Of a DNA stretch of 64,000 nucleotides, positions 37,116 to 42,511 are shown piece by piece. Both the position numbers and the translations under genes were made by a program. Each line of letters opens with the position of its first letter. Position 1 is the stretch's first letter. Source of the stretch: Spirochaetota bacterium. GTDB lineage: Bacteria; Spirochaetota; UBA4802; UBA5550. The stretch is taken from assembly GCA_963664815.2 (NCBI GenBank), contig CAXXHB010000003.1, positions 1,536,001-1,600,000 of the forward strand. Direction: 5' to 3'. Under the pieces are notes generated by a model that saw only the letters and a list, made by a program, of their open reading frames with translations, made no database searches and was not told the DNA's origin.

Positions 37116-37627
37116 TGAAATTTTTTAAAGTAGCAGCTATTCTGATCTTTTTACTGGGATTCTATATAAGCGGATTCACTTATACAAGGATTTATCTTTT
37201 TTCAGAAACTGAGACCGGTAAAGAGAATTTAGTATTATCCGATATCTGTAAAATGGAAGGAGATGGTATCGATAAAATAGCCGGAATTGTTATATCATCC
37301 GGACTCTATAAAGACGGAATTGTTGACAGTCAGGAATTATACGATTTACTTAGTAAAAGTCTGGGCAACAAATTATTAATTTTCGGGAGTGGAGTTAAGA
37401 TCAGAAAAATTAAAACCATGAACGGGCCTGAAGTAATGAAAACAATTCTGGTCGAAAAGGGCGAGATGGTTGATCTTTCAATAAAAAAAAATGGTATCGT
37501 TATAGAAATTAAAGGCAAAGCTTTAAGCAGCGGTTCAGAGAAAGATAAGATTGATTTCAGATTATCGACAGGAAAAGTTATAAAAGGTAAAATCATCTCA
37601 CTCAACAGGGCGGATATAGATTTATGA
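37115..37627 (+). CDS. flgA: P-ring chaperone FlgA-like protein
   Basis: Signal-like N-terminus; C-terminal VEKGEMV..I.IKGKALSSG..GKVIKGKI; lies between flgG and flgH. Confidence 0.65.
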   Translation: MKFFKVAAILIFLLGFYISGFTYTRIYLFSETETGKENLVLSDICKMEGDGIDKIAGIVISSGLYKDGIVDSQELYDLLSKSLGNKLLIFGSGVKIRKIKTMNGPEVMKTILVEKGEMVDLSIKKNGIVIEIKGKALSSGSEKDKIDFRLSTGKVIKGKIISLNRADIDL

Positions 37628-38253
37628 TAAAAGGTTTTCGAATATCCTTTTTATTTATTATAATTACTACATCTGTATGTGCTGCAACAATATGGAAGGA
37701 AAAAGATATCTATTCCACAGATAAAAATCTTCAGGTGGGAGATATTATAATAGTGAACGTAAGAGATTTTTCAAAATTAAAATTTGATATTGCTCTTAAT
37801 AATAATACTTCTTCAAATGTTGCTTCCAACCCGGATATGACAATAACAGGATTCCTGCCGAAAATATCTGCCAATAAAAATATTAAAAATAATGAATCAA
37901 CTAATTTTAATGGTAATTCAAAAATTGAAATTGCAATAGCCGCAAGAGTAACTGAAAAACAGAATAACGGTTTATCCGTTATCAATGGTAACAGGATATA
38001 CACATTTGATGGAGTAACAAATACAATTCAGATAGCAGGCATTATTGATCCTAAACTGTTGAATGCAGGCACAATTGATTCCGGGCATGTGGCGGATTTC
38101 ACAATTCAGATAACCGGAAGAAAGGATGGCCTCACTATAAGAAAAGCACAGGTTTCCGGAAGTGAACAGGCAGATACAAAACTTTCCGAGCAGGAAAAGC
38201 AGCAGATAGTAATAGATTATCTTGAAAAAATTATAAGGGAATTAACCAGGTAA
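37624..38253 (+). CDS. flgH: Flagellar L-ring protein FlgH
   Basis: VGDIIIVNV, AARVTE, IAGIIDP, IDSGHVAD; operon position. Confidence 0.75.
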   Translation: MIKGFRISFLFIIITTSVCAATIWKEKDIYSTDKNLQVGDIIIVNVRDFSKLKFDIALNNNTSSNVASNPDMTITGFLPKISANKNIKNNESTNFNGNSKIEIAIAARVTEKQNNGLSVINGNRIYTFDGVTNTIQIAGIIDPKLLNAGTIDSGHVADFTIQITGRKDGLTIRKAQVSGSEQADTKLSEQEKQQIVIDYLEKIIRELTR

Positions 38254-38254
38254 A

Positions 38255-39265
38255 ATGAAAATTTATAAACTGACGTCTCTCATAATTTTTATATTTCTGT
38301 CAGTAAACCTCAATGCAGAGATACCTGTGAAAGTAAAAAATATCTGTTTTATTGACGGTTATAAAACCAACCAGGCATATGGTTATGGGCTTGTTGTAGG
38401 ACTTCAGGGGACTGGAGATTCAAAGTCAGGTTTAACTAAAAATTCATTGAAAAATCTTCTGGCGTCAATGGGACTGCAGGAGGAAAACCCCGTAATAAAG
38501 AATACAGCAGCAGTGATTATATCAGCAACTCTTCCTCCAAATTTAAGGGTCGGTGAAAAGATTGATGTAAACGTATCATCAGTCGGTGATGCGAAGTCTC
38601 TTGCAGGGGGTATTCTTGTCCAGTCATCTTTGAAAGGGGGAGATGGCCTGATTTATATAGCTGCGCAGGGGAAAATCTCATTTCCTTCGGGAGAGAATGC
38701 AAGAAGTACTGTTAAAACTGCCGGAATTATTGTCGGTGGAGGAGTTGTCGAGAAAGAGATAAAACCGGATTTTGTATTTAAAACATCGGATAACAAAGAT
38801 TTTATTTACCTTGTGCTGAACAACTGGGATTATTCAACAGCGGATAAGCTGATTAAAGCATTGAAAGTGAAACTTAAAACCAGTGAGATAACCCTTGCTG
38901 AAAATGGAAGGATAAGTATAACGATTGATAATGCGATTCCTTTATCAGAATTTATTTCGAGTATTGAGAATGTTGAAGTAGTGCCGGAGACAAGGGCTAC
39001 TATAGTAGTAAATGAAAAAGATGGAACTATTGTTACAGGTGGGAATGTTACAATTTCAGAGGCAATGGTCAGCAGGCGTGGGATGCTGGTTCAGATTGAA
39101 AAATCTGATAAAAAGCTGAGCGCTTCAGTTATTAAGGATTCTTCAACTGTTAAAGATCTGGTGGACAGCCTGAATGCGGTAGGCGCCAATACAGAAGACA
39201 TTATTTCAATACTTAAAGCCCTTAAAGATTCCGGGGCATTACACGCAGAGTTGATTATTAAGTGA
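38255..39265 (+). CDS. flgI: Flagellar P-ring protein FlgI
   Basis: GYGLVVGLQGTGD, GDAKSLAGG, AAQG, GALHAEL. Confidence 0.95.
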   Translation: MKIYKLTSLIIFIFLSVNLNAEIPVKVKNICFIDGYKTNQAYGYGLVVGLQGTGDSKSGLTKNSLKNLLASMGLQEENPVIKNTAAVIISATLPPNLRVGEKIDVNVSSVGDAKSLAGGILVQSSLKGGDGLIYIAAQGKISFPSGENARSTVKTAGIIVGGGVVEKEIKPDFVFKTSDNKDFIYLVLNNWDYSTADKLIKALKVKLKTSEITLAENGRISITIDNAIPLSEFISSIENVEVVPETRATIVVNEKDGTIVTGGNVTISEAMVSRRGMLVQIEKSDKKLSASVIKDSSTVKDLVDSLNAVGANTEDIISILKALKDSGALHAELIIK

Positions 39266-39272
39266 GGTCGTT

Positions 39273-39650
39273 ATGAACGGAATTGAAGGTATAATCAGTA
39301 ATACGGTTTCTTCAAGAGTTAAACCGGCGGAGAATAGTCTTAACAGAATGAATTCCGGTGATAAATTTGAAACTGAGTTAAAATCGGCAGTTGCACAGAA
39401 TGATCCTGCCAAAATGGATAAAGAACATAAAAAACTCTGGAATACCTGTGTTGAAGCTGAGTCTCTGTTTGTAGGGAAAATGCTGAAAGAGATGAAAAAG
39501 ACAGTTCCGAAAGATGAATGGCTGCATGGAGGACAGGCTGAAGACATTTTTGAAGATATGCTTTATGATGAGTACTCACTGCAGATGTCCAAGAATTGCA
39601 ATTTCGGAATGGCTAAACTTCTATATAATGAAATGAGCAAAAGAATTTAA
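39273..39650 (+). CDS. flgJ: Rod-binding FlgJ (no muramidase domain)
   Basis: ESLFVGKMLKEMKKTV, IFEDMLYDEYS, GMAKLLY. Confidence 0.85.
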   Translation: MNGIEGIISNTVSSRVKPAENSLNRMNSGDKFETELKSAVAQNDPAKMDKEHKKLWNTCVEAESLFVGKMLKEMKKTVPKDEWLHGGQAEDIFEDMLYDEYSLQMSKNCNFGMAKLLYNEMSKRI

Positions 39651-39679: not shown

Positions 39680-39712
39680 AATCCCTCATGCGTAATGCAG
39701 AGGGATTTTTTA
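39680..39712 (+). terminator. Intrinsic terminator after flgJ
   Basis: AATCCCTC...GAGGGATT followed by a T run. Confidence 0.75.
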
Positions 39713-39774: not shown

Positions 39775-39803
39775 TTGACATTTTTATGGGCAATTATTAT
39801 TTT
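39775..39803 (+). promoter_or_regulatory. Sigma70 promoter for the small basic ORF
   Basis: TTGACA-17 nt-TATTTT; AGGAGG RBS at 39818-39823. Confidence 0.55.
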
Positions 39804-39828
39804 GCTTATAATGTAGCAGGAGGATATT

Positions 39829-40050
39829 ATGATTAAAAAGGTAAAAGATTTAAGGGCAGGGATAAGGCTGAAAATCAGGAAGCCGCCAAAAGTCGAAATT
39901 CCGAAAAATGTCTATAACCGCAAGGTTAAACACAGAAGGGGTCTGGAAGATGAGAAATTCAGACCCCTTTTTTATCCCTCCGGTTTATCATTGCATCTAA
40001 ATAACCATATAAGAAACAGTATTACTGTTAATTCTGTTATAGCTGCCTGA
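39829..40050 (+). CDS. Small basic protein, candidate alternative ribosome-rescue factor (ArfA/BrfA-like)
   Basis: AGGAGG RBS; KVEIPKNVYNRKVKH motif; terminator inside the ORF. Confidence 0.6.
   Translation: MIKKVKDLRAGIRLKIRKPPKVEIPKNVYNRKVKHRRGLEDEKFRPLFYPSGLSLHLNNHIRNSITVNSVIAA
39936..39973 (+). terminator. Intrinsic terminator inside ORF 39829-40050
   Basis: AAGGGGTCTGGA-10 nt loop-TTCAGACCCC followed by TTTTTT. Confidence 0.75.
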
Positions 40051-40270
40051 ACTCCATTGCTTCAAAATGATTTTCAAGAATGGTTTTGGTTTTCACAATA
40101 AGATCTTCCTCTAATCGTATACATACCCCGCAGTCGGAACTGATTGATTTAGGAACCGGTATAATCTTAATAGGAATTTTTTCATTGATGAGGATCTTTT
40201 CAGCTTTCATAACATGGCTGACAGATGAAAAGATTATTACATAATATTTTTTTATAGTTTCATCGGTCAT
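40037..40270 (-). CDS. DUF3343 family (Se/S-carrier-like) protein
   Basis: FSSVSHVMKAEKIL, IPVPKSISSDCG. Confidence 0.85.
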   Translation of the reverse strand: MTDETIKKYYVIIFSSVSHVMKAEKILINEKIPIKIIPVPKSISSDCGVCIRLEEDLIVKTKTILENHFEAMEFRQL

Positions 40271-40860
40271 GGGTTGATTATTCTTGATGCGCTGTTTAAA
40301 GTGTTCAGGATATCAAACATGTTGGAGATGGTACCTGTTTTTATCTTATCTGAGAGGTTGAAATAATTGACGCATGTTCCGCATATGGTTATTTCAACGC
40401 CTTTATTATTTAAGTCATGTATGTCGTCAGTAACCCCGGAACCATCCGCAGTGAGTTTAACTCCTGAATTATAGAATATAAGTCTGGAGGGGATCGGTTC
40501 AACAGATAACAGAGTATGCACAAATGCCTTCATTAAAATAGCGCCAAGTTCATCATCACCTTTACCCATTCTGTCAGATGAAAATACTACAACTGTTTCT
40601 CCAGTGCTGCATGAAGCGACAATATCATGACTGCTGCCTGATGCCTGGGGATTGACTTCTTTTAAAGTAATTGTGAAATAACCGCTGTAGGCAGCATCTT
40701 CATATGACCAGCCTGATGATGAAGCAAGACGTTTTAAATTTTCACGCGCTGTTTCATTATCTACAAGGACTTCAATAACATTAAACTCATTCATTTTGTT
40801 TTTTGTAAGTACAACCGGCTGCGGACACGCAAGACCTCTGGCGTCAATTTCGCACTTCAT
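40267..40860 (-). CDS. yedF: Sulfurtransferase-like selenium metabolism protein YedF (TusA + DsrE domains)
   Basis: IDARGLACPQPVV, MGKGDDELG, FYNSGV, CGTC. Confidence 0.9.
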   Translation of the reverse strand: MKCEIDARGLACPQPVVLTKNKMNEFNVIEVLVDNETARENLKRLASSSGWSYEDAAYSGYFTITLKEVNPQASGSSHDIVASCSTGETVVVFSSDRMGKGDDELGAILMKAFVHTLLSVEPIPSRLIFYNSGVKLTADGSGVTDDIHDLNNKGVEITICGTCVNYFNLSDKIKTGTISNMFDILNTLNSASRIINP

Positions 40861-40894
40861 TTTTTTACCTCGGATTTATATTGTAAAAAAAAAC

Positions 40895-42058
40895 TTATAT
40901 ACCTTTAACTGACTTTTTTGATAATTCAGAGACAGCCTTTATGGCCGTATCTGCATCTTCAATTGAATTGAAGTAACCGAAACTGATTCTGTTTGTTCCT
41001 GATGGGAATGTCCCTGTCGTTTTATGAGCGGAGGGAGCGCAATGCAGTCCCGGTCTTGTGAGAATATCATAGTTCTCATCGAGAAAGAATGCTGTATCGG
41101 AAGGTGACTGACCTTCGATGTTAAATGACAGAACCGAAACTCGATCTGACATATTCTCTGTTCCGTAAATAACGACATTTTTCAACTTGGAAATGCCGTC
41201 AGCAAATCTGCTTAAAAGCATCTGTTCTTTTGAATGAATGTTTTGAATACCGCTTTCCATTATGAATTTAACCCCGGCATACAGACCGGCTATTCCGATT
41301 GTATTTAATGTACCCGCTTCATATTTATCCGGCATAAAATCAGGCTGAATCTCAAATTCTGAACGGCTTCCGGTACCCCCGAACATAAGGGGATTGATTC
41401 TTTTATCGAGATCTTTCCTGATGTAAAGACCACCAGTTCCCATGGGGCCGAATAATCCCTTGTGTCCTGTAAAGCATAGTATGTCAATGTGGGACTTTTC
41501 AACGTCAATATCCAGTGTGCCTGCAGTTTGTGCGGAATCCACACAGAATGGAATACCGAACTCAGAGGCTATTTTACCAGTTTCTTCGATCGGGAGGATT
41601 GTTCCTGTCACATTTGAAGCATGAGTTGATATGATGAGTTTTGTATTTGATTTTATATATTTGTGTATTTTTCCGGTATCAAGCTTCCCGGTTCTGTCAC
41701 ATTCAATTACTGTTAACTGAACTCCTCGGGATTCCATTTCACGCAGTGGGCGCATTACTGAGTTATGCTCAATGGAAGTTGTAATTACATGGTCCCCCGG
41801 CTTTAATAATCCCTGTATTACAATATTTAACGAATGAGTTATACCGGAAGTAAATACGATTCTGAGAGGATCGGATATACCAAATAACCGTGCGATAATC
41901 TCTCGTGTGTTAAATAATACCCGGCCGGCTTCGATTGATAAATTATGGCCTGATCTGCCGGGGTTACTCCCGATAAATGTATTAAAATTATTCATAGCTT
42001 CTGTTACTGATGCAGGTTTAGGCCATGATGTTGCCGCGTTATCAAGGTATATGCTCAT
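40895..42058 (-). CDS. Cysteine desulfurase / selenocysteine lyase-like class V aminotransferase
   Basis: IYLDNAATSWPKP, NPGRSGH, EHNSV, DSAQTAG, TGHK, RPGLHCAP. Confidence 0.9.
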   Translation of the reverse strand: MSIYLDNAATSWPKPASVTEAMNNFNTFIGSNPGRSGHNLSIEAGRVLFNTREIIARLFGISDPLRIVFTSGITHSLNIVIQGLLKPGDHVITTSIEHNSVMRPLREMESRGVQLTVIECDRTGKLDTGKIHKYIKSNTKLIISTHASNVTGTILPIEETGKIASEFGIPFCVDSAQTAGTLDIDVEKSHIDILCFTGHKGLFGPMGTGGLYIRKDLDKRINPLMFGGTGSRSEFEIQPDFMPDKYEAGTLNTIGIAGLYAGVKFIMESGIQNIHSKEQMLLSRFADGISKLKNVVIYGTENMSDRVSVLSFNIEGQSPSDTAFFLDENYDILTRPGLHCAPSAHKTTGTFPSGTNRISFGYFNSIEDADTAIKAVSELSKKSVKGI

Positions 42059-42511
42059 TAAAATCACCTGCTGTTGAGATGATTAAAATTGCGCGGTTTC
42101 GTCAAGATATTTATCATCATTATTGATGTTTAAGATAAATAAAATTTATGGTAAATATATGCTTTGATAAAATAATTCATTAATAATTAATATCATACAA
42201 AGTTAATTCATTAATTTTTATTTTTGCGTAAAATGAACAATTATATCTACCGGAAGCTTTAAACATCCGGGATAATGGAATTTTTTTATCATAAAAATAG
42301 TTCAGGAATTATTACTGTAGATTAAATTAAAGCTTTATAATGTATGTGATAATTCTGCTGTTATTTATTCTATTCCGCACAGAGTCAGGCAGGAGCAGAG
42401 TTTAAAAAGTTGATTTTTTTCATGGCAGAACTATTTGTTGACAGATGCAGAGTTTTGTAAGTATATAATGATGAATATCATACAATATTACAATGAATTA
42501 AAAATGGAATT

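Follow-up and report, generated by a model that had tools for sequence, protein, structure and literature searches.

The window considered here, a 64,000-nucleotide (nt) stretch of contig CAXXHB010000003.1 from a Spirochaetota bacterium (positions 1,536,001 to 1,600,000), carries a small open reading frame (ORF) in which a hairpin resembling an intrinsic terminator lies inside the frame, well before the stop codon. This raises the question of whether the gene is built to give a message without a stop codon and, if so, what its product does. A terminator inside its own frame is a design known from back-up ribosome-rescue factors, and the gene is therefore a strong candidate for such a factor. 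We put the probability that its family is an ArfA/BrfA-type back-up rescue factor, gated by transfer-messenger RNA (tmRNA), at roughly 0.6. The locus is made up as follows (window coordinates).

39775..39803, plus strand: sigma-70-like promoter, TTGACA (39775-39780), 17-nt spacer and TATTTT (39798-39803), a 10/12 match to consensus
39818..39823, plus strand: Shine-Dalgarno sequence AGGAGG, 5 nt 5' of the ATG (from the sequence)
39829-40050, plus strand: the small ORF, 73 codons and TGA (from the ORF list)
39829..39972, plus strand: conserved coding part, codons 1-48, for a basic peptide (from alignments and the ratio of nonsynonymous to synonymous differences, pN/pS)
39928..39933, plus strand: codons of the Lys34-His35 (KH) motif, abutting the hairpin (from sequence and alignment)
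39934..39973, plus strand: in-frame intrinsic terminator-like hairpin and T6 run, coding for residues 36-48 (from folding, conservation and covariation)
39974..40050, plus strand: non-conserved 3' part of the ORF, codons 49-73 and TGA (from the drop in identity)

The hairpin begins at the codon after His35 and has a stem of 14 base pairs (bp; 39934-39947 with 39958-39971) and a 10-nt loop. The T6 run occupies 39968-39973, its first four T forming the last four stem pairs. This is the same element, with slightly different ends, as the 12-bp stem and T6 at 39936-39973 described in the original prediction, and the stop codon (40048-40050) lies 75 nt beyond the last T, the distance given there. 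A simple terminator scan did not list the hairpin because that scan admits loops of 3-8 nt. A transcript ending in or just past the T-run encodes approximately 48 residues and no stop codon; codons 49-73 and the TGA are expected to be absent from terminated transcripts. Folding of a 66-nt stretch gives -21.8 kcal/mol (z = -2.6; 3 of 200 shuffles equally stable). These single-sequence statistics are modest, and the above-chance case comes from a comparison of 44 loci.

The predicted product of the conserved part is very basic, with 17 Lys/Arg and five Asp/Glu counted on the translation of residues 1-48, and its residues 21-35 read KVEIPKNVYNRKVKH. An AlphaFold2 monomer model contains a single short helix (residues 3-10) and is otherwise mostly unstructured (mean predicted local distance difference test score, pLDDT, 65; predicted template modelling score, pTM, 0.16). 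The encoded peptide is probably one of approximately 48 residues, basic and largely disordered, and made deliberately from an mRNA without a stop codon. The sigma-70-like promoter, the AGGAGG ribosome-binding site and the very basic N-terminal part all stand where they had originally been placed. Taken alone, the candidate promoter is not above chance, a scan of a 2-kb stretch giving 11 promoter-like sites where shuffles give 7.8 ± 3.3. Nine of 12 aligned relatives nevertheless retain the TTGACA box, and all 12 have a G-rich GGAG or GAGG at the place of the Shine-Dalgarno sequence.

Relatives were sought among proteins and in genomes. A word-index protein search gave 22 proteins of 52-92 residues at E <= 0.1 among 23 candidates, the named ones being hypothetical proteins of Spirochaetota, and an exhaustive HMMER search of 1.84 billion representatives gave 30 at E <= 0.001, including eight at E <= 1e-10. 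Across 36 diverse sequences, R13, L14, K18, P20, K21, E23, P25, Y29, and R31 are invariant, while G11, K32, K34, and H35 occur in at least 90%. Conservation in the alignments is strong up to residue 48; beyond it the tails cannot be aligned and are unequal in length, from 8 to 109 codons past the KH codon. Selection and identity were calculated from 19 loci that share a codon register. Over codons 1-35, pN/pS is 0.20 and entropy at the third codon position is 1.23, against 0.45 and 0.33 at the first and second. Mean pairwise amino-acid identity is 72% for codons 1-35 and 7.8% for codons 50-64, and nucleotide identity drops from 71% to 29.7% past codon 49. Entropy, pN/pS and the drop in identity therefore indicate that the gene is protein-coding and that selection acts on a protein ending at the T-run.

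A fixed test was applied to the 46 nt 3' of the KH codon in 44 distinct loci from species-representative genomes, the collection also holding two loci that run off their contigs and one in which the motif was not found. A qualifying hairpin had at least 8 bp, a folding energy of -8 kcal/mol or better, and a start 0-2 nt after the KH codon. Such a hairpin is present in 40 of the 44 loci. The in-frame stop lies past the stem in 39, at 36 to 327 nt after the motif, and in 38 the last G-C pair is followed, inside the frame, by at least five T in 8 nt. As background, 563 of 37,966 sequence windows (1.5%) pass the same test when both strands of the loci are scanned, genuine terminators included. The idea of a self-truncating gene thus came through the question of whether homologues stop before the hairpin, the frame running through it in 39 of the 44 loci; the conserved in-ORF terminator and variable C-terminal tail proposed for homologues are found in 38, with a protein conserved only to the T-run.

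Covariation of the stem, computed on the 19-sequence alignment, points to the same element. Stem cells are paired in 88.7% of cases, against 32-71% when the partners are slid by 1-3 columns, and eight of the 14 pairs are altered on both sides. There are 37 doubly changed cells, compared with 14.7 ± 2.7 in shuffles (none of 500 shuffles reaching 37), and the covariation score is 0.418, the slid controls scoring at most 0.18. At the protein level, residues 36-46 vary among relatives (GLENEKFRP, GTENEKFSP, GYENEKSWP, GYDDKDSYP), and G38, P46, and F47-48 are dictated by the GGG, CCC, and TTT of the terminator; the hairpin stretch therefore seems to be selected mainly as RNA. Flanking the hairpin in many relatives are an A-run and a T-run, AAAAAGGG...CCCTTTTT, the A-run coming from the Lys codons AAA AAG past the KH motif. 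This arrangement is symmetric, and the hairpin in those relatives could therefore terminate transcription in both directions. The T tract had been described as lying on the plus strand, which holds at the window locus and not for these many symmetric relatives.

The arrangement resembles that of two known factors. In the accessible text of PMC6881298, brfA has a rho-independent terminator within its coding region, the approximately 62-residue BrfA product is SsrA-tagged and degraded unless trans-translation fails, and in the mRNA channel U534 of 16S rRNA is contacted in the same way by BrfA K49-H50 and by the ArfA KH. The E. coli record places the KH of ArfA at 44-45 and has an annotated 54-nt 3' fragment that leaves 55 codons, and a long hairpin starts 10 nt past the KH codons. 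The KH motif and truncated mRNAs originally ascribed to ArfA and BrfA are borne out by this record and by the accessible portions of PMC6881298 and of a 2021 review (PMC8012679). From KH to the 3' end there are 13 codons in the present gene (KH at 34-35, end at codon 48-49), approximately 12 in BrfA, and approximately 10 in ArfA.

Like BrfA, the predicted product is a small basic protein with a rho-independent terminator in its ORF; repression by tmRNA is known for BrfA, and here it is the genes for it that are seen. BrfA differs in giving no sequence match to the family profile in the Protein Data Bank (PDB), in having two N-terminal helices that contact h44, H69, and H71 where a single helix (residues 3-10) is predicted here, and in being limited to Bacillus, whereas the present family is limited to one Spirochaetota order. 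ArfA (YhdL, PF03889; beta- and gamma-proteobacteria) shares the in-ORF hairpin just past KH, although truncation is here predicted from sequence. It also shares a basic extended tail with Y-x-R-K-x-K-H, the motifs lying in register in an hhalign comparison, and its size is similar (72 annotated codons against 73, and an expected mature form of approximately 55 residues against approximately 48). The N-terminal region of ArfA that binds release factor (RF) 2 has no counterpart in the alignment, and the E. coli hairpin is an RNase III site, whereas the present one, with its T-run, has the look of a simple intrinsic terminator.

The rescue genes of the window genome, which is 96.2% complete, leave room for a back-up factor. 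Its tmRNA gene scores 201.6 bits and encodes the tag ANDNFALAA, and SmpB is present. It has exactly two genes with an RF-1 domain, RF2 (370 residues, with SPF) and RF1 (355 residues, adjoining a prmC-like gene); no third copy of ArfB size was found in this genome, nor any match to NFACT_N (RqcH). The RF2 gene (L061 700-1923) is itself a single open frame of 370 codons with a TTG start. No CTT-TGA-type frameshift site was seen in the 110 nt upstream of it, and the usual prfB autoregulatory frameshift may therefore be absent.

Among 401 sampled genomes of the phylum the family is present in 36, all of them in five families of the window's order, and it is absent from the 321 sampled genomes that family labels place outside that order. 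Within the order it occurs in 62 of 122 genomes, which divide as follows when a third RF-1-domain hit is also scored.

Family and third RF-1 hit: 3 genomes
Family, no third RF-1 hit: 59 genomes
No family, third RF-1 hit: 33 genomes
Neither family nor third RF-1 hit: 27 genomes

A third hit is thus found in three of 62 carriers against 33 of 60 non-carriers, and the same four counts are 3, 34, 26, and 18 among genomes at least 90% complete. Third hits inspected in five genomes are short frames of 112-190 residues, the size expected of ArfB. In genus g4, the largest of its family, the peptide is found in none of 17 genomes and a third hit in 16. The switch between peptide and third hit recurs in g4 against the rest of family f1, in genome G340 within genus g13, in genome G407 within genus g23, and between genera of family f6 (g26 and g30 against g32, g34, and g36). 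Of the loci in the three genomes that have both, L055 is of the ordinary-stop form, L101 is without a real hairpin, and L100 is of the terminator form. This is the pattern expected from two interchangeable back-ups, with the qualification that kin are not independent, and the peptide and ArfB (YaeJ, RF-independent), almost mutually exclusive in the order, appear to fill the same niche. The two differ in that ArfB brings a GGQ catalytic domain of its own and its mRNA is not stop-less, whereas the present peptide lacks GGQ and would depend on RF1 or RF2. Genomes with neither factor may carry another back-up or depend on tmRNA alone. The neither-factor genomes include all nine sampled g20 genomes, which are 91-99% complete.

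Together, the 44-locus test, the covariation, the near-exclusive distribution with ArfB-like genes and the lack of any other known back-up found in the window genome support the rescue-factor analogue first proposed for this locus. In the mechanism envisaged, transcription from the gene's own promoter would end at the in-frame terminator directly past Lys34-His35, and ribosomes would stall at the message's 3' end, where tmRNA-SmpB would add the ANDNFALAA tag and commit the peptide to degradation. Were trans-translation saturated or lost, untagged peptide would accumulate. On ribosomes that have stalled on other stop-less mRNAs, its basic PK-x-x-Y-x-RK-x-KH segment would then enter the vacant mRNA channel, and the peptide, like ArfA and BrfA, would bring in a class-I RF (RF2 or RF1, both in the genome) to free the nascent chain. 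The steps that we infer are termination in vivo, tagging by SsrA, binding to the ribosome, and recruitment of an RF, including which RF that is.

A number of observations weigh against this reading, beginning with the loci themselves. Six of the 44 lack the full in-frame terminator: an ordinary stop comes 8-12 codons past KH in L055, L059, and L103, a real hairpin is missing from L101, and the hairpin of L042 and L045 is not followed by a T-run. The metagenomic relatives P0036, P0041, P0044, P0045, and P0047 (43-58 residues) likewise end shortly past the motif and are devoid of an in-frame terminator. Since members with an ordinary stop exist, the family does not strictly require a stop-less message. 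The His, too, is missing from a few members, which read KKKD or KKQK. The hairpin, with its A-run and T-run flanks, could serve a convergent neighbour as a bidirectional terminator, and a ribosome following close behind RNA polymerase would cover the 5' arm and could suppress termination; the same objection holds for brfA, yet termination has been demonstrated there (PMC6881298, accessible text). The argument from distribution is weakened by the non-independence of kin, by the 27 genomes with neither factor and the three with both, and by inspection of third hits in five genomes. A sub-branch with YSRKKKD or YNRKKQK (L048 and L050-L053) has no histidine, yet retains the in-frame hairpin and a T-rich tail.

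The remaining adverse points come from sequence comparison, which gives no demonstrable homology to ArfA or BrfA. PF03889 (ArfA) matches none of 36 members at E <= 10, and the family profile matches no chain at E <= 10 in the whole PDB set, which includes ArfA complexes; PDB entry 6SZS contains BrfA, according to the accessible text of PMC8012679. Comparison with ArfA by hhalign yields one 21-column match (P = 0.0016, probability 15.8%) that places PKNVYxRKxKH over ArfA GKGSYxRKxKH, and this 11-residue motif is the sole resemblance. The KGKGS motif of ArfA (bioRxiv 10.1101/465609) is absent from the family, with PKNVY at the corresponding place. The ArfA alignment used was narrow (18 Enterobacteriaceae-type sequences, 78-92% identical), and the match is a motif-level resemblance that does not prove homology.

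Other searches gave leads of similar strength. The window protein matches no Pfam or NCBIfam family at E <= 10. Seven of 36 members give sub-threshold matches to DUF7230 (PF23876), at 15.1-17.7 bits against a cut-off of 27 bits (best E = 0.0038), that span K-x-PK-x-E-x-PKNVY-x-RK-x-KH; DUF7230 matches neither the window protein nor the window genome, and the profile test does not place the family in it. In the ESM Atlas, the best clusters are unnamed (0.91), followed by one with 20% DUF7230 members (0.89) and the ArfA cluster (0.88), all of them leads only. The PHROGs gave weak matches to unnamed families, phrog_6310 in 17 of 36 members (best E = 0.00059) and phrog_18092 in 10. With relative P0047 as query, tblastn against 50,697 phage records gave nothing at E <= 10 and a word-index protein search returned the query alone; when viral contigs were scanned with the family alignment, 244 pattern matches came up and none was confirmed. 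A bolder possibility is that KH-motif peptides, comprising ArfA, DUF7230, and the present family, may form one ancient, fast-evolving superfamily of bacteria and phages.

The alternative that survives best accepts the stop-less, tmRNA-gated design as real and has the peptide act otherwise, without RF recruitment, for instance by blocking vacant ribosomes or in hibernation, as an RNA chaperone, or in toxin-like slowing of growth. The evidence for the design (covariation, selection, and the 44-locus test) fits any tmRNA-gated product, the N-terminal two thirds of the peptide are unlike any known rescue factor, and the AlphaFold2 model offers only the one short helix at residues 3-10 with a pTM of 0.16. 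We nevertheless regard such a function as unlikely: ArfA and BrfA are matched in the KH motif, in its basic surroundings, and in how far it lies from the 3' end, and the near-exclusive distribution with ArfB-like genes points to the job of ArfB. A stop-less product would, moreover, need a release route when tmRNA fails, and neither ArfB nor RqcH was found in the genome.

It is quite improbable that the gene encodes an ordinary small basic protein, such as a ribosome- or nucleic-acid-associated one, whose frame merely has a terminator overlapping its 3' end and whose read-through or normally stopped forms do the work. The three loci and five metagenomic relatives with ordinary stops, 5-12 codons past the motif, do show that a normally terminated form of the peptide is possible. 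However, a stop could easily have evolved within the approximately 13 codons of the hairpin and T-run, yet none has in 39 of the 44 loci. Read-through products would bear unrelated tails of 8-109 residues, and tagging would waste the terminated messages unless that is what they are for.

The last alternatives concern the neighbouring genes, which at the window locus are as follows.

37624-39650, upstream: operon for FlgH (L-ring), FlgI (P-ring), and a rod-binding protein (from Pfam)
39680..39712, plus strand: terminator-like hairpin and U-run closing the flgH-flgI-rod-binding operon (from folding)
40037-42067, minus strand: convergent operon for a class-V aminotransferase (cysteine-desulfurase-like), a TusA/DsrE fusion, and a selenium/sulfur (Se/S)-carrier, PF11823 (from Pfam)
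40037..40270, minus strand: the Se/S-carrier gene (PF11823), last of the convergent operon and not part of the element (from Pfam)

The upstream hairpin folds with -19.5 kcal/mol (z = -3.76; 1 of 200 shuffles equally stable). The upstream operon being ended by a terminator-like hairpin, the small gene is therefore taken to be its own transcription unit. The genome is of spirochaete type, and FlgH and FlgI, as L- and P-ring proteins, are unexpected with periplasmic flagella. At its 3' end the Se/S-carrier gene shares 14 nt with the small ORF, within the latter's non-conserved tail, and this gene could use the in-frame hairpin as a shared terminator. Neighbours were surveyed at 41 loci by crude ORF calling (at least 80 residues). 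At 21 of them the first ORF downstream is co-directional, at 18 it is convergent, and at two it is missing. Neighbours are conserved among close kin only, with downstream clusters of no more than four members; the largest cluster of all, with eight, is the upstream rod-binding gene. The least probable reading, a leader peptide or attenuator or else a neighbour's terminator with an incidental frame, can draw on the 21 loci at which a translation-responsive terminator could in principle gate a co-directional gene and on the convergent operon that ends 66 nt from the hairpin in the window, and was rejected in both forms because neighbours vary across lineages, downstream genes being unrelated between them and convergent in 18 of 41 loci, while nine invariant residues and a pN/pS of 0.20 are unlike a leader peptide and the register of the hairpin is fixed to the KH codon and not to any neighbour. 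A convergent-terminator role, whether at the window locus or in the AAAAAGGG...CCCTTTTT relatives, cannot account for the conservation of the hairpin.

To our knowledge, three RF-dependent alternative rescue factors have been described, ArfA, ArfT, and BrfA, each in a narrow group. Set beside these, the reading of the family as a tmRNA-gated back-up factor can be put more specifically, and we lean slightly towards it in this form: a further RF-dependent factor, distinct in sequence from all three, the first in Spirochaetota, confined to one order and substituting there for ArfB. It would share with the known factors only the stop-less-mRNA switch and the KH channel probe, and a new N-terminal module (GxRL...KPPKxExP) would engage RF1 or RF2. 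What appears new, judged from the sequence, is a distinct family with a different N-terminal part in a phylum without a known ArfA/BrfA-type factor; the regulatory design and the channel motif are known.

The 2021 review (PMC8012679), in its accessible text, notes that further unidentified small rescue factors may exist and are hard to find. A 2024 survey of 108 Spirochaetota genomes (PMC11633108) lists 107 and 107 in its trans-translation columns, 16 for ArfB, and 0 and 0 for ArfA and BrfA, the order of the columns being that of the accessible text. Spirochaetes are not mentioned in the portion of Burroughs and Aravind (2019) consulted. No account of a spirochaete alternative rescue factor or of the present family was found in the literature, of which supplementary files might list more, and nothing was found on DUF7230.

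If the reading of the peptide as a back-up rescue factor is true, it would fill the rescue-factor gap for one whole order, and would add another stop-less-mRNA switch, one whose sequence family is not that of ArfA or BrfA. It would also provide a new RF-engaging peptide for structural work, and a conserved terminator within a small conserved ORF would become a usable signature in the search for rescue factors. The finding also matters to the question of whether these bacteria would get round inhibitors of trans-translation.

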